A stretch of 64,000 bases of DNA from Omnitrophica bacterium RIFCSPLOWO2_12_FULL_50_11 (lineage in GTDB: Bacteria; Omnitrophota; Omnitrophia; Omnitrophales; Danuiimicrobiaceae). The translations under genes were made by a program, and so were the position numbers. This document shows positions 3,747 through 59,731 of this stretch, piece after piece. Under the pieces are notes generated by a model that was given only the letters and a program-made list of their open reading frames with translations, made no database searches and was not told the DNA's origin. Within the stretch, counting starts at the first letter, position 1; each line of letters starts with the position of its first letter. The stretch spans positions 4,600 to 68,599 of the forward strand of contig MHFT01000050.1 in NCBI GenBank assembly GCA_001804315.1, given 5' to 3'.

Positions 3747-3900
3747 AAAGGGGACAGGTTGTCCTCTCCCCCTCTCCGCCGGAGGACGGACCCACTTCCG
3801 GCAGGCGGGCAGAGGAGATGACGTTGAGCATCCCTGAAAAGGGGAGATTATAGAACTCAAGTTATGATATGACTTACCTTTACGATGTTTTGGATGTGTG

Positions 3901-6117: not shown

Positions 6118-7111
6118 CCAGTACCTCTTGCATCGATTAACGGGGCAGATCGAACGGAGACAATTGAGTTCGACTTATCTGTTCACGGGCCCTGAGTCCG
6201 AAAAGAACAAGCAGCTGGCAATCGCGTTCGCACAAGCACTGAATTGTCCGCGAACTGAGCGTCCCGAGGCGCTGCCGTGCGGCTGCACTGTCTGTCGAAG
6301 GATTGAAGCAGGTGTCCATCCCGATGTGATGTGGTACGGGACCGATGAGGAGTCGAACGCAATCAAAATTTCCCAGGTGCGGGAATTTCGAAGTTTGCTT
6401 GCGTTAAAGCCCTTTGAAGGAAAAGTGAAGGTGTTCATTTTTAACGGTGCCGAACGCCTATCGAGTGAGGCCCAAAACGCGCTCTTAAAGAGTCTAGAAG
6501 AACCGCCGAGAGGGAACGCGATCGTTCTTTTGGTGCCGCAAGCAAACGTCCTTTTTGACACAGTCGTTTCCCGCGCCCTTGAAATTAAAGTACCGCCTTT
6601 TAAGACGGAAGAGATTCGAAACATCCTCGTCGAAGAAGGCGCGGCGGAAAAAGAAAGCGAGTTTTTAGCTCGGATGGCTCAGGGAAAGCTCGCCCGTGCC
6701 CGAGAAGCGCTTCAGGAAGGATGGTTTCACACTAAGAATCAGTGGCTCGATTCGCTCGTCAAAAACCCAATCGCCTTTCTGGACCAATTTGGCGAGTCCT
6801 CCCGCGGTCACATTTCGGTCGTCCTCGCGTTTTTGCTTGAGTGGCTGCGGGATGTTCTCGTTTTTGAGGTTTCGGGCGAGAGTGAATTTCTGGTCCATGC
6901 GGACCGGATCCGGCTCATCGAGTCGTACGCTGAGCGTTATCCGTTTGATTCCGTCTTGGAGCTGTTCGAACGAATCGAGGAGATTCGAAAGGCACTTCGA
7001 GATTACGGAAATCAAAAACTTGCGCTCACGCAGACTCAAATCTTGTGGGGTAAAGTGGTGGGGAATGATCCCCCACCATTTATTCTCAAGAAACCAGATG
7101 GTGGGGGATGA
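6095..7111 (+). CDS. holB: DNA polymerase III delta-prime subunit
   Basis: AAA+ clamp-loader fold. LFTGPESEKNKQLAIAFAQALNC with Cys cluster CPRTERPEALPCGCTVCRR. Placed between tmk and metG as in Firmicutes. The last ~15 codons are encoded by a repeat hairpin. Confidence 0.75.
   Translation: MSSAGLVDQYLLHRLTGQIERRQLSSTYLFTGPESEKNKQLAIAFAQALNCPRTERPEALPCGCTVCRRIEAGVHPDVMWYGTDEESNAIKISQVREFRSLLALKPFEGKVKVFIFNGAERLSSEAQNALLKSLEEPPRGNAIVLLVPQANVLFDTVVSRALEIKVPPFKTEEIRNILVEEGAAEKESEFLARMAQGKLARAREALQEGWFHTKNQWLDSLVKNPIAFLDQFGESSRGHISVVLAFLLEWLRDVLVFEVSGESEFLVHADRIRLIESYAERYPFDSVLELFERIEEIRKALRDYGNQKLALTQTQILWGKVVGNDPPPFILKKPDGGG
7055..7110. repeat. Family-A element at the holB/metG junction: GTGGTGGGGAAT + GATCCCCCACCAT - 18-nt loop - ATGGTGGGGGAT
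   Basis: 12-bp stem 7068-7079/7098-7109, loop TTATTCTCAAGAAACCAG. The loop is the rc-relative of the 2246-2263 loop (both share CTGGTTTCTTG). Confidence 0.85.
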
Positions 7112-23368: not shown

Positions 23369-23432
23369 CTCAAAGCGGCGATTAGAGGGTCAATCTGAAG
23401 GTAGGCGAAAAATGAAGAGAAACCTTCCCTTT

Positions 23433-23600
23433 TTAGCGGCTGCTATCCTTGCGCTTTGCGAAGCACTCCTTGCAGTAGACCGGGCGGTTTCCGCTGGGTC
23501 TAAAAGGTACTTCGCACTCTTTCTGGCAGTCTGCGCAAACCGCCTTGAACATTTCCCTTGGTCTTCCGCCGAATCCACCACCACCTTGCTGAAATGCCAT
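23433..23600 (-). CDS. Small 55-aa glycine-rich zinc-ribbon protein (CxxC-x17-CxxC), absent from the ORF track
   Basis: MAFQQGGGGFGGRPREMFKAVCADCQKECEVPFRPSGNRPVYCKECFAKRKDSSR. Perfect SD AAGGAGG sits 9 nt upstream of the ATG at 23600. Confidence 0.6.
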   Translation of the reverse strand: MAFQQGGGGFGGRPREMFKAVCADCQKECEVPFRPSGNRPVYCKECFAKRKDSSR

Positions 23601-23978
23601 CTATAGTTCCTCCTTTTGGTTTACATAAGCTACTGAACACCTTCCAAATATCGTCCGTATTTGTACGATACTGAAGTGGCTCCCCGGCGAACACTCCAAA
23701 ACGTCCGGATACCAAGTCGCCAAGGGCGCCTGGAAGATCCGAGAATCTACGCCTCATTCTGAGCCGGAGATCTTTCGCCCCTTTCCGCCTCCGCCTCCGC
23801 CGGAGGACAGATGCGCCTCTGGCGCAAGAGGACGGATTCGTCCTTCGGCGAAAAACAGAGCGGCGGACCCGCCACGTTCTTTGGCGGGCGGGGCTCAGCA
23901 TGACGTCCGAAGGGGCCTCAGTAGGATGACGGAATAGCGTTGCCGTATGAACTCACATGCACCCTCAACAGACAAATT

Positions 23979-24017: not shown

Positions 24018-24271
24018 TTTAGTCCGGTTTTCTCATCAATTTGGCGGATTGATGAGAAAACCGCTTTGGACGCACGAAGTTGCGTCCACATGCACGCACG
24101 GGATGATCGACATCCCGGCGTGCAGTGCTGGCCCATAAAGGGCCGGCAAAGTTTTGCGCCCCTCTCAAAATGGGGCGCAAAAGACAACCCCTGTGGTACA
24201 AATGGACAAGCCCATTTGCACCACAGCCTCTTCGAGGGCATTTCTCATTGGCGATGAGAAATGCGGGTTAG
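24018..24271 (+). repeat. Multi-hairpin element copy 1 (254 bp). Seven consecutive perfect hairpins; includes a 59-nt insertion relative to copy 2
   Basis: Hairpins GGTTTTCTCATCAAT/ATTGATGAGAAAACC, TGGACGCA/TGCGTCCA, (insert CACGCACGGGATG/CATCCCGGCGTG, GGCCC/GGGCC), TTTTGCGCCCC/GGGGCGCAAAA, CTGTGGTACAAATGG/CCATTTGCACCACAG, GCATTTCTCAT/ATGAGAAATGC. About 95% identical to 46343-46536. Confidence 0.85.
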
Positions 24272-24349: not shown

Positions 24350-25243
24350 GTGCGAATCGAATCGATCGGTGAATTCGGTCTCATACGCTTGATTCAAGGG
24401 TGGCTCAACCAGCACATCCTGGATGATACCGCTGTCCTTCCGGCTCCAAGCGGCCGGAATCAATTGCTGACGATCGATACTTTGGTAGAGGGGGTCGACT
24501 TTCTGAGGGGAAGGGCAACGCCTGAACAACTAGGCTGGAAGGCGCTTGCGGTGAGCTTAAGCGATATCGCGGCCATGGGCGGGAAGCCAGAAGCAGCAGT
24601 GATTAGTCTGACGCTTCCCAGGCGGACACCGGTTCGGTTTGTCAGGAAATTTTATGACGGACTGCAAAAATTGGCGCGACGCTTCCAAGTTGCTCTGGTG
24701 GGCGGGGACCTTTCACGCGGTTCGAAGCTAAGTTGTTCCGTAGCCGTACTGGGTGAAGCCGGGCGCAAGCGAACCATTTTTCGGACCGGTGCCAAGGTTG
24801 GTGATTTCATCTGCGTCACAGGGCGGCTGGGGGGCTCCATTCTAGGCCGGCATTTGACTTTTATGCCGCGCATTAAGGAGGGACAGTTTCTCGCGAGAGG
24901 CGGCGTTCATTCGATGATCGATGTATCGGATGGTCTTGTCCAGGACCTGAATCATTTGCTTTCACAAGGAAAATTAGCCTATGCATTGGACGAGACTCAG
25001 ATACCGGTCACCCCCGCGGCACGAAAGCTGGCTCGGGGAAATTTCAAGAAGACCTTGGCACATGCTCTCACTGATGGTGAGGATTTCGAACTTCTCTTTA
25101 CGATCTCTCCGCGCCAGTTTCGTAAACTCCAGCCGCTTTGGAAGCGACGTTTCCGAACTCCAGTGTCGGTGATCGGCCGTGTGATTCGAAGACCCAAAGG
25201 GTGGAAAGCACCACAGGGGAGATGCGGTTTTCGACATTTTTAA
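24350..25243 (+). CDS. thiL: Thiamine-monophosphate kinase
   Basis: AIR-synthase-related fold. GEFGLIRLI N-terminus, DDTAVL, VKTDTL-like region, GGDLSRG. Confidence 0.75.
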   Translation: MRIESIGEFGLIRLIQGWLNQHILDDTAVLPAPSGRNQLLTIDTLVEGVDFLRGRATPEQLGWKALAVSLSDIAAMGGKPEAAVISLTLPRRTPVRFVRKFYDGLQKLARRFQVALVGGDLSRGSKLSCSVAVLGEAGRKRTIFRTGAKVGDFICVTGRLGGSILGRHLTFMPRIKEGQFLARGGVHSMIDVSDGLVQDLNHLLSQGKLAYALDETQIPVTPAARKLARGNFKKTLAHALTDGEDFELLFTISPRQFRKLQPLWKRRFRTPVSVIGRVIRRPKGWKAPQGRCGFRHF

Positions 25244-27561: not shown

Positions 27562-28104
27562 ATGACGTTTCGTATTCTTCATTACGACACCGTAGATTCA
27601 ACCAATAATTTGGCGCGTGCTCTTGCGGAACGAGGCGCTCGGGAAGGAACCGTGATTGTCGCCGATTATCAAACCCACGGCCGCGGCCGTTTTCAGCGGC
27701 GTTGGTATTCGCCGCGCGGGGCTGGTTTGCTCTTTTCCATCATTTTAAGGCCTCGGTTTCAGTCCTCCAAGGCTTCTATATTGACCCATGTGGCGGCACA
27801 GGCCGTTCGGGAGACACTTGAGAAACAATTTGGTTTACAGGCCCGGCTGAAGAAACCGAATGACGTGGTTGTCGGAGGAAAAAAAATTGCTGGTGTTCTC
27901 GCAGAGGCTAGTGGCCAGCAACGTACCTTATCCTACGTGGTCATCGGGATAGGCCTCAACGTCAATACGAAGGCAAAGGATCTTTTGCAGACCGCGACGT
28001 CTATGTACGTGGAAACAGCTGGACGGCTTGAGCTACATTCTATTCTCAATTCAGTGCTCGGAATTTTCGGCAGGATGTATGTGGGGATCATCGCCCACCA
28101 TTGA
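27562..28104 (+). CDS. birA: Biotin--protein ligase catalytic domain (group I BirA-like, no N-terminal HTH, short C-terminus)
   Basis: GRGRFQRRWYSPRGAGLLFSIIL (GRGRxGRxWxSPxG). The last codons overlap a family-A repeat. Confidence 0.75.
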   Translation: MTFRILHYDTVDSTNNLARALAERGAREGTVIVADYQTHGRGRFQRRWYSPRGAGLLFSIILRPRFQSSKASILTHVAAQAVRETLEKQFGLQARLKKPNDVVVGGKKIAGVLAEASGQQRTLSYVVIGIGLNVNTKAKDLLQTATSMYVETAGRLELHSILNSVLGIFGRMYVGIIAHH

Positions 28105-28133
28105 TACGCAAGCAACAAAATGGTGGGGGATCA
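28083..28133. repeat. Family-A element (degenerate) overlapping the birA 3' end: GATCATCGCCCACCATT - 18-nt loop - AATGGTGGGGGATCA
   Basis: Loop GATACGCAAGCAACAAAA shares TTGCGTA (as rc) with the other copies. Confidence 0.75.
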
Positions 28134-34992: not shown

Positions 34993-35102
34993 ATTGCATG
35001 GATCGCATCCTCGCAATGACGGCTGCGGTGGGCTTCTCCCTCGGAATGACGGTGCAGTGCAAGGCCGTCGGCTACCGTTTGGCATGCTGGCCTCGCCATG
35101 AC
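34990..35102. repeat. Family-B fragment array: partial GTCATTGC, then three direct copies of the CCTCGCAATGACGG-like terminal motif (35008, 35038, 35091). The last supplies the guaA ATG
   Basis: CCTCGCAATGACGG, CCCTCGGAATGACGG, CCTCGCCATGACAA. Confidence 0.7.
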
Positions 35103-41805: not shown

Positions 41806-41860
41806 CAACGTCATGCGAGGCCAACAACCCAAGCAATGGCCGAAGTAATTGCAACTGCAC

Positions 41861-41954
41861 CGTCATTGCGAGGAAGCGAACCAGGCGAAGACGAAGCAAT
41901 CTCAGAACCTAGATTGCTTCGGCATTGCTTTGGGACTCAGCCTCGCAATGACGG
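41861..41954. repeat. Family-B nested inverted-repeat element: GTCATTGCGAGG ... GAAGCAATCT ... AGATTGCTTC ... CCTCGCAATGACGG
   Basis: Outer 12-13-bp arms at 41861-73/41941-54, inner 10-bp arms at 41893-902/41911-20. Creates a spurious 42-aa N-terminal extension of mtaB in the ORF track. Confidence 0.85.
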
Positions 41955-41961
41955 ATGCGTG

Positions 41962-44547: not shown

Positions 44548-46329
44548 ATGGCTTTCAGCGAGCAAGTGATTGATCAAGTCCAGCAAGCGAGCGATATTGT
44601 GGATGTGGTTTCTTCTTATGTTCCGCTCAAGCGGGCAGGTCGTAACTATAAAGCGCTTTGTCCGTTTCATCACGAAAAAACCCCGTCTTTTATGGTGAAT
44701 CCCGACAAGCAAATCTTTCACTGCTTCGGTTGTGGCGTTGGAGGCGATGTCTTTTCATTCGTGATGAAACATGAACAGATGGGCTTTCCGGAAGCGCTCC
44801 GGCATCTGGCCGATCGCGCACGGATTTGTCTCCCCGAAGCTAGTGACACAACACCGGAAGCGCGTTCTCTCAACGAGCGGTTGTATCAGATTTATGCCCT
44901 TGCTTCAGAATTTTATCATACTCGTCTGACGAATCCTGCACTGGGAGAGCAGGCACGATCGTACTTGGCCAAACGTAGTTTTGATCTAGAGGCGGTTAAG
45001 ACGTTTCAGTTGGGTTTTGCACCCCCCGAATGGCGCGCACTTCTTCAGATGTTGACCAAAAAAGGATTTCGGGACGAAGAACTGCTTCGTTCCGGGTTGA
45101 TTGTCCGATCGGTCCAAGGCGAAGCGTATGACCTTTTTCGAAACCGTATCATATTCCCCATTATGAACGCGCAAGGCAAGCTGATCGCATTTGGTGGTCG
45201 GGTTCTGGGTGATGAAACGCCCAAATATCTGAACTCACCTGAAACCTCAATTTTCAAGAAGCGGAAGGAGCTGTATGCACTCCACCTTGCGAAACGATTT
45301 ATTTCTGCCCCTGGTGCCATTCGCCGTGTCCTCATAACGGAAGGCTATCTGGACTGCATTCGCCTTTACATGAGTGGTTTTCAAAATGTGGTTGCGAGTC
45401 TAGGGACTTCGCTGACCGAAGAGCACGTTCGGAATCTCAAGCGTTATGCAGATGAAGCGATTGTGATTTTTGATCCGGATCCGGCAGGTGAACAAGCATC
45501 GTTGAGAAGTCTGGACCTTTTTCTTGAGGAGGGGATGGCGGTTAAAGTGCTCTCACTCCCTCAGGGGATTGATCCGGATGACTTCGTTCGGGCGCGCGGA
45601 CCAGAGGCGATGAAGCCGTTGATAGAAGAAAGCCAGGATTTTTTTGACTTTAAGCTTCGTGTCCTTCTCGCGCGTTACAACCGGTCGGATTCACTTGGAC
45701 TCTTGAAGGTTACAGGAGAGTTTTTAGACAGTATTTCCAAAATTAAGAATGCGGTACTTGTAGACCGCTATTTAAAACGGTTGTCAGCGAATTTAGGTGT
45801 TGAAGAAACATCGTTACGTTCTGAATTAAAGAAGTTGAAACAGAAGCAGACGTCACTCCGGTTCACCAAACCAGCCGGCTCGCAAGTCGGCCAGACGAGT
45901 GACAAGGAGGGACCATTTGAGAATATCCTCCTAAGTTTACTCCTTAATGAACCGATGCATTTAACCGTTTTCCAGGAGATGTTTCCTCATTTTGTGTTTT
46001 CGAGCGAGAAAGCAAATAAGGTGCTCCATCTGCTCGGCCAAATGGCTCATGAAGAGGCGCTGTCTCGGCATTCGGCTTCAAAATTGTTGAATCGGGTCAG
46101 AGACCCTGAGTTGAAAAACTACGTCAGTAACTTGCTCGTCAGGGAGTGGGGCTCAGCGCGCGATCGGGACCGTGCATTTCATGACTGTATGGAACGGCTG
46201 AGGAAGGGGGAACGATCGGAGCAGCTCAAAGCGCTTCGCCATCAGATTTCGCAGGCAGAAAAGACAGGTGACGAGAAGCTGGTTCTCCAGTATGTTAGGG
46301 AATATCAAGGGTTACTTGGAAAGGGGTGA
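44548..46329 (+). CDS. dnaG: DNA primase
   Basis: Zinc ribbon CPFHHEKTPSFMVNPDKQIFHCFGCGVGGD, TOPRIM EGYLD...DPDPAG. Confidence 0.9.
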   Translation: MAFSEQVIDQVQQASDIVDVVSSYVPLKRAGRNYKALCPFHHEKTPSFMVNPDKQIFHCFGCGVGGDVFSFVMKHEQMGFPEALRHLADRARICLPEASDTTPEARSLNERLYQIYALASEFYHTRLTNPALGEQARSYLAKRSFDLEAVKTFQLGFAPPEWRALLQMLTKKGFRDEELLRSGLIVRSVQGEAYDLFRNRIIFPIMNAQGKLIAFGGRVLGDETPKYLNSPETSIFKKRKELYALHLAKRFISAPGAIRRVLITEGYLDCIRLYMSGFQNVVASLGTSLTEEHVRNLKRYADEAIVIFDPDPAGEQASLRSLDLFLEEGMAVKVLSLPQGIDPDDFVRARGPEAMKPLIEESQDFFDFKLRVLLARYNRSDSLGLLKVTGEFLDSISKIKNAVLVDRYLKRLSANLGVEETSLRSELKKLKQKQTSLRFTKPAGSQVGQTSDKEGPFENILLSLLLNEPMHLTVFQEMFPHFVFSSEKANKVLHLLGQMAHEEALSRHSASKLLNRVRDPELKNYVSNLLVREWGSARDRDRAFHDCMERLRKGERSEQLKALRHQISQAEKTGDEKLVLQYVREYQGLLGKG

Positions 46330-46342
46330 CGTGAGGTAAGGA

Positions 46343-46536
46343 TTTAGTCCGGTTTTCTCATCAATTTGGCGGATTGATGAGAAAACCGCTTTGGACGCAC
46401 GAAGTTGCGTCCAAAGTTTTGCGCCCCTGTCAAAACGGGGCGCAAAAGACAACCCCTGTGGTACAAATGGACAAGCCCATTTGCACCACAGCCTCTTCGA
46501 GGGCATTTCTCATTGGCGATGAGAAATGCGGGTTAG
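46343..46536 (+). repeat. Multi-hairpin element copy 2 (194 bp, five consecutive perfect hairpins), between dnaG and rpoD
   Basis: Same hairpin series as 24018-24271 minus the 59-nt insert. Differences from copy 1 fall in loops (TGTCAAAAC vs TCTCAAAAT). Confidence 0.85.
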
Positions 46537-46542
46537 GATTCT

Positions 46543-48330
46543 ATGAAGAGGGAAAGAAGGTTTAAGAAAATTCGTCAGAAGAAGCGAAACCGGAATGCCA
46601 AAGGCCGAGGTCTGGATTCTCGGCGCGATTCAAAGCATTCGCCGAAATCGAGGCCCTGCTTGGAGAAAGAGACTGTGTCTATCACCAGAAAAGTCCATGG
46701 CCGTACAAGGAAGAAGAAAACACTAGCTTCTGAGGCAGCCAGTTTGAAACGAGGCGGAACCGCTTCTTATCAGGCGGACTTAGATCAGCTTGTCTCGTTA
46801 GGCAAGCGGCAAGGCTATGTCACTTATGAGCAAATCAACAGTGTATTTCCACGCGAAACCACTTCTTCCGAAAGGATCGAGGAAATACTAAACGCACTTT
46901 CTGAGCGGAATATCGAGGTGACGACGAGCCCGATTCAAAAGGGGGCCGGCGTTGAAGAAGAAAGTCAAGTGAAGAAGGAGAGGAAAGAAATAGCTCTACC
47001 TCGTAAAGAATTTCCGATTCAAGAAGAAGAATATGAACGCGCCCGCATGGATGATCCTGTTCGGACCTATTTGCGTCAAATGGGTCAGATTCCGTTGCTG
47101 ACGCGGGAGCAGGAAATCGCGCTCGCGAAGCGCATTGAAGATGAAGAGGCGAAATTGGCGACCACGGTGTTTGAAACGAAAGCGGCACGATATGAGGTGT
47201 TGTGCTTGGCAAATCAAATTGTGAACAATGAGGTCAGCTTAGAATCCATCATTGATGAAGACGAGGCATCCAAACTCCAGTTCACGAAGCGAAAGTTACA
47301 AAGTCTAACGCGCAAGCTTCGTGCGTCGCGCAAAGATGCTGACTTAGTCCCGCTCCTGAAGCAGTTCAATCTGAATGTCGGGATCGTCGAACAAATTATT
47401 GCCAATTTGCGTTCCAAACTCAATGAGCTTAAGCGGAACGAAAAGGCGATCGAGCAACTTAGGAGAACAGAGGTTCGGGGACAGATTGGTGCCCTGATGG
47501 AACGGAACAAAGAAATTCTCAGTCAGATCGGCGAGACGGAAAGTGCGGTTTATGAGCATATGAAGCGGATTCAAAAACGTGAGCGTGAGCTTTCTCGGGC
47601 GAAGAAAGATTTAGTCGCTGCGAATTTGAGGCTCGTGGTGAGCATTGCCAAAAAATACACGAACCGAGGGCTCACGTTCTTGGATTTGATTCAGGAAGGC
47701 AATATCGGTTTGATGAAAGCGGTAGATAAATTCGAATACAAGCGGGGTTACAAATTTTCTACTTATGCGACCTGGTGGATCCGCCAGGCAATTACGCGTT
47801 CGATTGCGGACCAGGCGCGAACGATCCGCATTCCGGTGCACATGATCGAGACGATCAATAAATTTTTCCGTGCGTCGCGACATCTGGTTCAGGAATCGGG
47901 CCGCGAGCCGACTCCGGAAGAAGTGGCGCGTGTGATGAAGATGCCGGTTGAAAAGGTGAAGGGGATCCTGAAAATTGCGCAGGAGCCCATCAGCCTTCAG
48001 ACGCCTGTGGGCGAAGAAGGAGACACGAGCTTTGGCGATTTTATCGAGGACAAAGGCGCCGTTTCTCCAGCGAATGCGACTGCTTATTCCATGCTCAAAG
48101 AGCAGATGGATGAGGTTTTGGACACGATTACAGAGCGCGAGGAAAAAGTTTTGAGGCTTCGGTTCGGGATCGGGGATGGTTACTCACGGACGCTCGAGGA
48201 GGTAGGGAAAATCTTTAATGTTACGCGCGAGCGCGTCCGTCAAATTGAGGCGAAGGCGCTTCGAAAACTAAGGCATCCAACGCGTTCGCGGAAGCTGAAA
48301 AACTTTTTAGACTTGAAGTTCAAGGACTAG
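46543..48330 (+). CDS. rpoD: RNA polymerase primary sigma factor (sigma-70/RpoD) with an unusual basic N-terminal extension. Start uncertain
   Basis: Regions 1.2-4: [92 protein letters not shown]. Confidence 0.9.
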
Positions 48331-50837: not shown

Positions 50838-51150
50838 AATTTGGTGATGCGCGGTAGGGCTAGGAGATGATCGCTCCCGCCGGATTTGGGCGGGGGAGGA
50901 AAGTCCGGGCTCCATAAGGCAGAGTGCTCCGTAATTCGGAGGCTTACGTCCCGAAAGGGGTGTAAGACGGAAAGTGCCACAGAAAAAAAACAGCTCCTCA
51001 TTTTTTTGGGGGGTCAAGGTGAAACGGCGGTTTAAGAGACCACCGGTCCAACGGCAACTGCGGACGCATGGCAAACCCCACTTGGAGAAAGACTGAATAG
51101 AAGACGATCGGCTTGCCCTTAAAAGACGTCGAGCCAGGGAATAGCCTGTT
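50838..51150 (+). ncRNA. rnpB: RNase P RNA (bacterial type A, compact ~300 nt). Ends are approximate
   Basis: Universal P4 region GGAGGAAAGTCCGGGCTCCATAAGGCAGAGTGC; GGAAAGTGCCACAGAAA; GGTGAAACGGCGGTTTAAGAGACCACC; 3' P4 strand GATCGGCTT. TATAAT -10 at 50815. Confidence 0.8.
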
Positions 51151-51154
51151 CCCT

Positions 51155-51210
51155 GTCCCCCACCACTTTAAGGTGATAATCTTTGGACACACCTTAAAGT
51201 GGTGGGGGAC
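51155..51210. repeat. Family-A hairpin element (GTCCCCCACCACTTTAAGG - 18 nt - CCTTAAAGTGGTGGGGGAC), immediately 3' of rnpB
   Basis: Perfect 19-bp stem, 18-nt loop. Confidence 0.9.
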
Positions 51211-51271
51211 TAAAGTCTTGGGTTAGTCGCATGAGATTTCGTGAGAGCGGAATCCTAGACAGATGATCATC

Positions 51272-51327
51272 GTCCCCCACTACTTTAAGGTTCGTCCCCT
51301 GTGACATTCCTTAAAGTAGTGGGGGAT
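51272..51327. repeat. Family-A hairpin element (GTCCCCCACTACTTTAAGG - 18 nt - CCTTAAAGTAGTGGGGGAT). Carries a compensatory C-to-T / G-to-A pair relative to the copy at 51155
   Basis: Perfect 19-bp stem; CACTAC/GTAGTG here versus CACCAC/GTGGTG in the neighbouring copy. Confidence 0.9.
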
Positions 51328-51423
51328 TACAGAACTCGGCTTAACTTAGCGTTACCGCGCAATCTCCACTTTTGCACAATGTAAACGGGTGCGTGGCACC
51401 AAACTTTTTCTTGGTTTTTGCTG

Positions 51424-58500: not shown

Positions 58501-58879
58501 AGCCCAAGAGCTTTTGCGGCTTGGATACGAGCTTGTGTCGACGCAGGGCACAAGTCGGGTTTTGGAAGCCCACGGTGTAAAAACCGAAGTCGTGAAGAAG
58601 ATTGCTGAAGGGCATCCGAATGTGGCCGACAAAATTCGGGCGAAAGAAATCGGTCTCGTCATTAACACGCCAACCGGTAAGGGGCCGATGTTGGATGAAG
58701 CAAAGATCCGTTCTCTCGCTGTTTCGTTTAACATTCCTTGTATTACGACATTGAACGCAGCCCGCGCCATTGTGCGTGCTGTGAAGTCATTCCGCAAGCG
58801 TGGACTGACTGTCAAGTCACTCCAAGAGTATCACGAATTGAACAGCAACGTCATTGCGAGGACGCAATTCAGGCGATGA
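55562..58879 (+). CDS. carB: Carbamoyl-phosphate synthase large subunit
   Basis: Two ATP-grasp repeats ([21 protein letters not shown] / [22 protein letters not shown]), oligomerisation and MGS-like domains. The last ~10 codons lie inside a family-B repeat. Confidence 0.95.
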
Positions 58880-58942
58880 CGAAGCAATCTTGCATTCTGA
58901 GATTGCTTCGGCAATGCTCCGGTACGCTGCCTCGCAATGACG
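58849..58942. repeat. Family-B nested inverted-repeat element spanning the carB stop and the pyrK ORF-track start
   Basis: GTCATTGCGAGG 58849-61, GAAGCAATCT 58881-90, AGATTGCTTCGG 58899-910, CCTCGCAATGACGG 58929-42. Confidence 0.85.
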
Positions 58943-59731
58943 GACGTGGATGAAAAGGTCATGTATGACGAAACAGTAACGATTCTTGAGAATCAAAAAG
59001 TGAACGCTCAATATTACAAGCTTGTTTTTTCCTCCAAGCGGATTTCCCGGCGCGTTCGAGCTGGTCAATTCGTCAATCTTCAAGTTGAAGACAGTTCAGA
59101 TCCACTGCTCAGAAGGCCGCTGAGTTACTACCGGGTGCGCAGTGAGCGGGTCGAACTTCTGTATGAAGTGTTAGGGCGGGGCACGGCACTCTTAGCGCAA
59201 AAAAAACGAGGTCACAAAGTTAACGTGTTGGGGCCGCTTGGCCACCCTTTTTCACAGACTCTAAACGGGAAGCGCCGCCTCCTCGTGGGCGGCGGTGTTG
59301 GCGTTCCACCCCTTTTGTTTCTTGCAGAGCACGCCGGTAGGGAAAAGCACGCACCGGTTTTTCTGATTGGCTGTAAGTCAAAGGGCGAAGTACTTCCAAA
59401 GCGGGAACTTTCGAATGTGAAGGGAGAAGTTCTCTACGCCACGGAGGATGGTTCCTACGGCCAAAGAGGACTCGTTACCGTTTTGCTTCAAAAGTTGCTT
59501 GAAAAAGGGGATCCCAAATCGTGGTTTATTCAAACGTGTGGTCCCCATGCGATGCTGGCTGCTGTGATGAAGCTGGCGCGTCAATTTGGCGTTGAAGGCG
59601 AAGCTTCCATTGATGAGCGAATGGCTTGTGGTGTCGGTGCCTGTTTGGGATGTGTTGTCGAGACGAGAGAAGGATTTAAAACGAGCTGTGTAGAAGGCCC
59701 GGTATTTTCATTTCGTGATTTGGTAGGATAG
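58937..59731 (+). CDS. pyrK: Dihydroorotate dehydrogenase electron-transfer subunit PyrK. True start possibly MYDETV at 58961
   Basis: FAD/NAD ferredoxin-reductase fold; C-terminal 2Fe-2S cluster motif CGVGACLGCVV. Confidence 0.85.
   Translation: MTDVDEKVMYDETVTILENQKVNAQYYKLVFSSKRISRRVRAGQFVNLQVEDSSDPLLRRPLSYYRVRSERVELLYEVLGRGTALLAQKKRGHKVNVLGPLGHPFSQTLNGKRRLLVGGGVGVPPLLFLAEHAGREKHAPVFLIGCKSKGEVLPKRELSNVKGEVLYATEDGSYGQRGLVTVLLQKLLEKGDPKSWFIQTCGPHAMLAAVMKLARQFGVEGEASIDERMACGVGACLGCVVETREGFKTSCVEGPVFSFRDLVG

Follow-up and report, generated by a model that had tools for sequence, protein, structure and literature searches.

The 64,000-nt stretch of Omnitrophica bacterium RIFCSPLOWO2_12_FULL_50_11 analysed in this work (contig MHFT01000050.1, positions 4,600 to 68,599, hereafter the window) carries two copies, in the same orientation, of a repeat made of consecutive hairpins. 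Copy 1 (24019-24271, 253 nt including its flanking duplications) precedes a thiL-like gene, and copy 2 (46344-46536, 193 nt counted in the same way) fills the spacer between dnaG and rpoD. [quoted passage not shown] The earlier note on this DNA, made from the letters alone, had located the two copies and their common orientation correctly. Their identity is higher than the ~95% that it gave: over the common stretch of 194 nt (24018-24271 and 46343-46536) there are two differences only (99% identity), both in the loop of hairpin H3, where the note had placed them. The chain of hairpins that it described is present, with six hairpins in copy 2 and eight in copy 1 instead of five to seven. The two additional hairpins of copy 1, H2a and H2b, form an insert that is real and measures 60 nt, not 59 (24089-24148; its placement is ambiguous by a 2-nt CA microhomology). 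The stems are not all perfect and free of bulges as had been claimed, since H4 contains an A.C mismatch, H2a a 1-nt bulge and H2b a T.G pair, while H5 has only 4 bp. The coordinates are collected in Table 1.

Relative to shuffled sequence, RNAfold gives the plus strand a folding energy of -148 kcal/mol for copy 1 (z -14.9) and -107 kcal/mol for copy 2 (z -12.0), and the minus strand folds nearly as well (z -13.4 and z -12.5, respectively). The hairpin motif TTTCTCAT..ATGAGAAA occurs 4 times against 0.00 expected. Only short open reading frames (ORFs; 60-86 aa) run over the two copies and none of them is element-specific. Independent assemblies from other samples recover both copies, insert included, and several of their contigs terminate within the element, as expected of a repeat.

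Table 1. Features of the two window copies and their neighbouring genes (TSD, target-site duplication; TIR, terminal inverted repeat; H, hairpin)
Feature	Position in window	Strand	Remark
5' TSD TTAG, copy 1	24019-24022	+	4-mers equal at both ends in 69 of 75 full-length copies; outer base co-varies
Core of copy 1	24023-24267	+	245 nt; 8-hairpin '253-nt' subfamily
Left TIR TCCGGTTTTCTCATCAAT, copy 1	24023-24040	+	also 5' arm of H1 (24025-24063); sequence read directly
Inner hairpins, copy 1	24067-24237	+	H2 24067-24088, H3 24152-24182, H4 24191-24226 (A.C mismatch), H5 24227-24237
Two-hairpin module of 60 nt, copy 1	24089-24148	+	H2a 24091-24124, H2b 24126-24148; hallmark of the long subfamily
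Right TIR GGCGATGAGAAATGCGGG, copy 1	24250-24267	+	includes 3' arm of H6 (24238-24264)
3' TSD TTAG, copy 1	24268-24271	+	
thiL-like (AIR-synthase-related) gene	24350-25243	+	downstream neighbour of copy 1, outside element
dnaG	44548-46329	+	upstream neighbour of copy 2, outside element; Pfam
5' TSD TTAG, copy 2	46344-46347	+	
Core of copy 2	46348-46532	+	185 nt; 6 hairpins
Hairpins, copy 2		+	H1 46350-46388, H2 46389-46416, H3 46417-46447, H4 46456-46491, H5 46492-46502, H6 46503-46529
3' TSD TTAG, copy 2	46533-46536	+	
rpoD	46543-48330	+	downstream neighbour of copy 2, outside element, no overlap

The two window copies belong to a large dispersed family. A scan with the end-hairpin motif over one genome per species gave 11 loci in the metagenome-assembled genome (MAG) Omnitrophica bacterium GWA2_52_8, where the elements measure ~193 nt, are ~89% identical to copy 2 and have unrelated flanks; a metagenome scan with the H3-H4 linker then added 95 further stretches. 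When all fetched DNA was searched with a hidden Markov model (HMM) and the matches were chained and de-duplicated by flanks, ~102 distinct insertion sites with unrelated flanks were obtained, 75 of which hold full-length copies with both flanks. GWA2_52_8 contributes at least 65 of the sites, and the data set with the window-type subfamily at least 14. The further copies that the earlier note had proposed to look for thus exist, including versions with other internal content. The first pattern scan also matched in Hyphomicrobiales and Flavobacteriales; these matches were excluded as belonging to other families in which the short motif happens to occur. A distant blastn search of a plasmid collection gave one insignificant match of 35 nt. 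Mean identity among copies is 93% and many are identical; copies with 100% identical cores at separate sites indicate probable recent bursts.

The complete elements have the layout 5'-TCCGGTTTTCTCATCRAT ... GGCGATGAGAAATGCGGG-3' inside a duplicated 4-nt target, almost always TTAG. The TIRs are imperfect and ~18 nt long: 12-13 of the 18 positions agree between the left one (TCCGGTTTTCTCATCRAT) and the right end when reverse-complemented (CCCGCATTTCTCATCGCC). H1 consists of the left terminal repeat and its own inward inverted copy, and H6 is built likewise from the right end. Between these ends the content varies. The 253-nt form with the 60-nt insert is found at at least seven distinct sites (L116, L117, L122, L175, L119, L169 and the window); it thus forms a subfamily that has itself transposed, rather than the result of one isolated event. 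At the other extreme, a minimal form of 43 bp, in which the two ends surround a 5-nt loop, occurs twice in GWA2_52_8 with TTAG flanks (L059 and L144), and close relatives of it flanked by CTAA come from Candidatus Omnitrophus fodinae (L079) and from a Planctomycetota MAG of groundwater origin (L053). In the former, the same right end is followed by CTAA, and one contig begins within another copy. Derivatives deleted at the 5' side lack H1-H2 (L033 and L143) or H1-H3 (L059). Modules H2a, H2b, H2, H3 and H4 were sought outside elements in the DNA examined and none was found; the 60-nt module is present only within long-form copies. The hairpin modules are thus not independent mobile units in this DNA. 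At two places (L111, 670-1070, and L141, 3650-4200) the 5' flank and the first part of the MITE are repeated upstream of a complete copy; these local duplications may reflect genuine rearrangement at the element or else faulty assembly.

The earlier note had remarked that TTAG flanks the element, and this tetranucleotide is indeed present at both ends of both window copies. Among the 75 full-length copies, the 5'/3' pairs of 4-mers are TTAG/TTAG in 61, CTAG/CTAG in 7, GTAG/GTAG in 1, TTAG/CTAG in 2 and pairs with a single mismatch in 4; the two ends are thus identical in 69 copies and discordant in 6. The outer base of the 4-mer co-varies between the ends (Fisher p = 3e-8), and base composition directly beyond the 4-mers is unbiased in the same copies. 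CTAG-flanked and TTAG-flanked cores are 99-100% identical (two of the seven at 100%) and no internal position separates the two groups. Because these cores are identical or nearly so, the four flanking nucleotides are a true target-site duplication, whose outer base is contributed by the target site and does not travel with the element. A paralogous empty site is available at locus L009, where CCCTCACCCTAGCCCTCTCCC is present once unfilled and once filled as ...CCCTAG[core]CTAGCCC..., a pattern that requires a 4-nt staggered cut and repair. The insertion target behind this comparison is a hairpin repeat, CCCTCTCCCGGCGGGAGAGGG, in L009. For copy 2, an orthologous empty site was sought in the dnaG-rpoD spacer of GWA2_52_8 (~300 nt), which has no MITE; the two genomes (DnaG 45% identical) are too divergent for the site to be compared base by base. 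The element has moved to many unrelated sites with duplication of four target bases.

None of the 75 full-length copies clearly interrupts a gene. When empty sites are restored, 9 of the 75 fall within open frames, each of only 94-190 codons, which is compatible with chance. The occupied sites are intergenic in 57 cases and lie exactly on a stop codon in the other 18. On the same contigs, free TTAG sites are genic in 767 cases, intergenic in 451 and at stop codons in 54, and ~60% of unoccupied TTAG sites lie in ORFs of at least 100 codons. Stop-codon sites are thus over-represented among insertions (18/75 versus 54/505 free non-genic TTAG sites, p = 0.002). The stop codon concerned is either the TAG within TTAG or a TAA read on the other strand; an insertion placed right at the end of a gene does no harm, since the duplication restores this codon. 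Copies placed between tandem genes are co-oriented with them in 24 cases and opposed in 13, a difference that is not significant.

Copy 2 does lie in the dnaG-rpoD spacer as described earlier; however, it does not overlap the rpoD N-terminus, since an in-frame stop, formed by the TAG at 46534-46536 within the 3' TTAG, precedes the rpoD ATG at 46543. With the element removed, the spacer (46330-46542) shrinks to ~24 nt. Because the 3' TTAG followed by GA re-forms AGGA 6 nt ahead of the ATG, the ribosome-binding context of the essential rpoD gene has outlasted the insertion. A promoter-like site was sought in or near copy 2 and none was detected, so the rpoD mRNA presumably either reads through six hairpins in the orientation of copy 2 or starts at an undetected promoter. 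Near copy 1, the typA-thiL intergenic region also contains a small ORF (23390-23584, minus strand), which, read by eye from L082, would encode a glycine-rich N-terminus followed by two CxxC pairs, a putative zinc-ribbon-like arrangement.

From one lineage to another the hairpin stems are kept by compensatory changes and the loops drift. In 25 representative copies, 92.7% of the stem cells are paired, against at most 48% when the partners are slid. Both partners have changed in 12 pairs, where shuffles give 4.6 +/- 1.4 such pairs and slid controls 1-5; these double-sided changes are in H1 (7), H6 (3) and H4 (2). Four lineages can be compared (window type, GWA2 type, L094 and L166): their loops differ by 39-63% and their stems by 6-19%, and up to 11 pairs have changed on both sides between them versus 5 on one side. 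In L166 the end hairpins are perfect (17 bp and 12 bp) and differ from those of the window at 4 and 3-4 pairs, respectively.

Taken with the target-site duplications, the properties of the family are those of a MITE. Prokaryotic MITEs are recognized by small size, absence of coding capacity, TIRs, a TSD and many dispersed and truncated copies (review PMC10969869), and the present repeats are small and non-coding, have TIRs and a TSD, and exist as many dispersed copies with truncated variants. The earlier note had counted a non-autonomous mobile element among its options and had equated copies with TSDs and variable internal content with a MITE, which is what the many copies show. In the mechanism that we propose, a transposase encoded elsewhere would bind both ~18-nt ends, cut NTAG, mostly TTAG, with a 4-nt stagger and insert the element there; the enzyme would likely be a DDE transposase acting in trans, and H2-H5 and the 60-nt insert would be passenger palindromes. 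The autonomous partner would be expected as a segment bounded by 5'-YCCGSWTTTCTCAT...ATGAGAAAWSCGGR-3' and a YTAR duplication. An IS5-type family for the mobilizing enzyme is suggested by the TSD alone. IS5 has a 4-bp YTAR target duplication (PMC5009759), and the present element has in common with it a duplication of this form (TTAG and CTAG, with CTAA in the relatives from O. fodinae and Planctomycetota) and an intergenic bias, but it differs by a strong preference for TTAG among YTAR words and by one GTAG case outside YTAR. The enzyme may instead belong to another family with duplications of about 4 bp, such as IS701, IS1380 or ISH3. The ends of IS5-family elements carry GG or GA tips.

Several observations weigh against this reading. 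The tips of the element (TCC... and CCC..., that is YCC) do not resemble those of the IS5 family. Searches of 1.15 Mb of fetched DNA and of IMG/VR yielded no autonomous element, nor a transposase flanked by matching ends. In the fetched DNA, left and right end motifs placed 300-5000 nt apart returned MITE pairs only, a fuzzy search for solo ends returned minimal elements only, and a generic scan for YTAR and 16-nt TIR pairs 600-3500 nt apart returned MITE pairs and one unrelated candidate of 714 bp. Two IMG/VR scans with the end motifs gave matches with no recognizable element around them, which are probably due to chance. In L166, moreover, the left and right ends are alike at only about 8 of 14 positions, which fits recognition of a structure better than recognition of a sequence. 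Stems that are kept while loops drift are also expected from selection on the structure of RNA or of single-stranded DNA. Finally, part of the conservation reflects ascertainment, since the scans demanded an exact match to H6 or to the linker between H3 and H4. The 714-bp candidate is an observation of its own: it is present at L123 (723-1444) and L137 (2775-3496), has a 16-nt inverted repeat, TTTTTATGAATCGGAA, with 2 mismatches and TTAA on both sides, and may be another non-autonomous element in GWA2_52_8.

The best-surviving alternative, which we nevertheless regard as unlikely, keeps the MITE and makes its hairpin array functional and selected, either in RNA (as a terminator or insulator, a 3'-end stabilizer, an RNase target or a sponge) or as folded single-stranded DNA used for mobilization. 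It would account for the compensatory stem changes and drifting loops, for the retention in all four lineages of the H4 A.C mismatch (G.U on the minus strand), for T-rich tracts that follow H4 and H2 on the minus strand, for the mild excess of co-oriented copies and for end palindromes that stay perfect in L166 despite two differing end sequences. It also has a precedent in bcr1, a transcribed repeat with compensatory changes (PMC3184786). The co-orientation excess, however, does not reach significance, and mismatches of the wobble type have no clear strand preference (about 35 G.T versus 21 A.C, counts that are not independent). Most copies come from a very recent burst, the largest subfamily already carries mismatches in H1, H2 and H4, and the exact words demanded by the scans make conservation there partly a matter of ascertainment; together with the lack of a clear strand signal, these points weaken any inference of selection. 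In addition, template switching can generate and maintain perfect hairpins (PMC8794818); because it yields paired changes mutationally, without selection, the compensatory pattern does not prove selection for RNA. We ascribe the upkeep of the stems chiefly to palindrome-templated correction (template switching), along with a filter acting on those few 'master' copies which continue to transpose, and not to a function of the RNA in the host.

The window genome and GWA2_52_8 share only 45% protein identity for DnaG and 61% for RpoD (window 44548-48330 versus L141 7951-11330), against ~89% nucleotide identity for the MITE. This disparity suggests that the element and its transposase have spread horizontally among co-occurring Omnitrophota. 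The same disparity also underlies the more specific version of the functional hypothesis, which we consider slightly less likely still than its general form, and in which the hairpins would act either in folded-end recognition that still gives a 4-nt TSD, or as a selected RNA module (an operon insulator or 3'-end stabilizer) spread by transposition and horizontal exchange.

A quite different mode of movement would be that of repetitive extragenic palindromic (REP) sequences and bacterial interspersed mosaic elements (BIMEs), or of palindrome-associated transposable elements (PATEs) derived from IS200/IS605; here a Y1/HUH transposase (a REP-associated tyrosine transposase, RAYT, or TnpA) that recognizes terminal hairpins and NTAG would mobilize the copies in the form of single-stranded DNA. 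REPs are laid out as GTAG plus a palindrome. The present element resembles them in having short perfect palindromes beside an NTAG-like tetranucleotide, conserved here at each end, in its high copy number and extragenic location, and in that hairpins and not end sequences are conserved in L166; H1 and H6 do occupy a sub-terminal position, but this feature is common to other families and not diagnostic. Such systems make no target duplication, however, and a fixed 3' tetranucleotide predicts the combination CTAG/TTAG, which is never observed, against seven cases of CTAG/CTAG. The match between CTAG-flanked and TTAG/TTAG cores, the empty site with a single CTAG in L009 and the minimal form, which is a symmetric pair of ends, all argue in the same direction: a true TSD and symmetric terminal repeats are incompatible with REPs. 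The multi-REP array suggested by the earlier note is thus largely refuted by the TSD statistics, and we hold this mode of movement to be highly improbable.

That the repeats are a family of structured non-coding RNA (ncRNA) genes, such as sponge or decoy small RNAs duplicated in the genome, as had also been suggested, is scarcely credible. The extreme folding energies and a weak promoter-like match upstream of copy 1 would agree with it. However, the two strands fold equally well, and there are more than 100 copies, in both orientations relative to neighbouring genes, with TSDs, deletion variants, variable content and an ends-only form. The promoter match (CTTACA-18-TAGAAT, 9/12 to consensus) is at chance level, 1 being found against 0.6 expected in shuffles, and copy 2 has no promoter-like site upstream. 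Rfam, used at gathering score on the whole window and permissively on the element, returned nothing relevant: on the element there were only sub-threshold chance hits such as bantam, which scored 24 bits where the cut-off is 61. As for a local segmental duplication within the contig or an assembly artefact, the idea draws on the window itself showing two copies only and is refuted by their unrelated flanks, by ~100 other sites in several data sets and by the agreement of independent assemblies, which leaves it with practically no probability.

Returning to the MITE interpretation, comparison with characterized elements shows which properties are ordinary and which are particular. With other prokaryotic MITEs (Correia, RUP, Nezha, Chunjie, QMITE; PMC10969869) the family has in common a small size (about 190-250 bp here), absence of coding capacity, multiple copies, TIRs, TSDs and mostly intergenic sites, as well as size variants, truncated copies and transcripts predicted to fold very stably; Chunjie likewise sits in an operon without destroying it, as copy 2 does in dnaG-rpoD. 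In contrast with the single long hairpin formed from TIR to TIR by usual MITEs, the present elements are chains of 6-8 separate local hairpins, in which each terminal repeat pairs with its own inward copy. The duplication is also different, a specific 4-mer, TTAG, versus TA for Correia, 9 bp for Chunjie and 7-9 bp for QMITE2 (PMC10969869). The statement in the earlier note that nothing looks like this does not hold, as two elements come close. The bcr1 repeat of the Bacillus cereus group (about 155 bp, with 5-bp direct repeats, transcribed and with compensated stems; PMC3184786) is a hairpin-rich, MITE-like element whose multi-stem structure is kept by compensatory changes and varies in stability among copies, as here; it differs by the length and sequence of its TSD, has no sequence similarity, belongs to another phylum and is known to be transcribed, whereas the present element is known from DNA alone. 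BOX of Streptococcus pneumoniae (boxA-boxB(n)-boxC; PMC3184786) is similarly non-autonomous and modular, with stem-loops that vary in number; the present family instead shows a single 60-nt gain that founded a subfamily, together with deletions, rather than a tandem number of one module, and it has clear TIRs and a TSD. In the literature searched we found no paper with both 'Omnitrophica' and 'miniature inverted-repeat', and none that ties a TTAG/CTAG duplication to a particular bacterial MITE.

Other repeats and RNAs were noticed in the course of this analysis. At window 50855-51358, the RNase P RNA, which is of bacterial class A (228 bits), measures 504 nt against a model of 367 positions, with a ~100-nt insertion in the P15-P17 region of the alignment and, near its 3' end, an extra long hairpin of ~40 nt, CCCCCACUACUUUAAGG...CCUUAAAGUAGUGGGGG. 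The stem of this hairpin resembles that of a second repeat family, made of ~49-nt hairpins GGGGATGATCCCCCACCA...TGGTGGGGGAT (2227-2275, 7061-7109 and 28083-28131). A third family consists of palindromic units CGTCATTGCGAGG... / AGATTGCTTCG... (41853-41959, 58841-58948 and 34999-35027); it is present in the window genome and in GWA2_52_8, and in L037 it lies about 190-250 nt upstream of the MITE of that locus. Short CTCCGCCGGAGGAC(G/A)GA repeats are found at 3774-3802 and 23795-23823, and similar CCGCCGAAGGACGG units in L009. Outside the Omnitrophota, another high-copy repeat (L001, L002, L004 and about 30 loci; Hyphomicrobiales SVL1_sbin.57 and Segnochrobactraceae EtOH-i3) contains a hairpin, GCGGATTTCTCATgccaTTGGCgcatATGAGAAATCCGC, in at least 80 nt of conserved sequence and has the TTTCTCAT/ATGAGAAA stem in common with the Omnitrophota element, through common descent or by chance. 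An identical sequence around TTTCTCATCTGGCGATGAGAAA, shared by very small contigs of Kineobactrum, two Rhodosalinus species and Marinobacter (L007, L011, L068 and L076), is probably a common contaminant or spike-in of those assemblies.

In conclusion, the repeat defines a new family within a well-known class of elements, the MITEs, and is not a new RNA gene as had been considered. It stands out by its chain of separate hairpins, by terminal repeats that are self-paired, by a TTAG target that coincides with stop codons and by an Omnitrophota host. Current concepts of mobile DNA are unchanged by it. Its recognition guards an abundant repeat against being mislabelled as a novel RNA gene in annotation, and accounts for contig breaks in Omnitrophota MAGs. 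The ends-only, 6-hairpin and 8-hairpin forms constitute a natural data set on whether perfect hairpins are maintained by selection or by template switching. For the biology of these organisms, the family means that uncultured, small-genome groundwater bacteria carry a recently active, TTAG-specific transposition system, whose element seems to pass from one distant lineage of the Omnitrophota to another.

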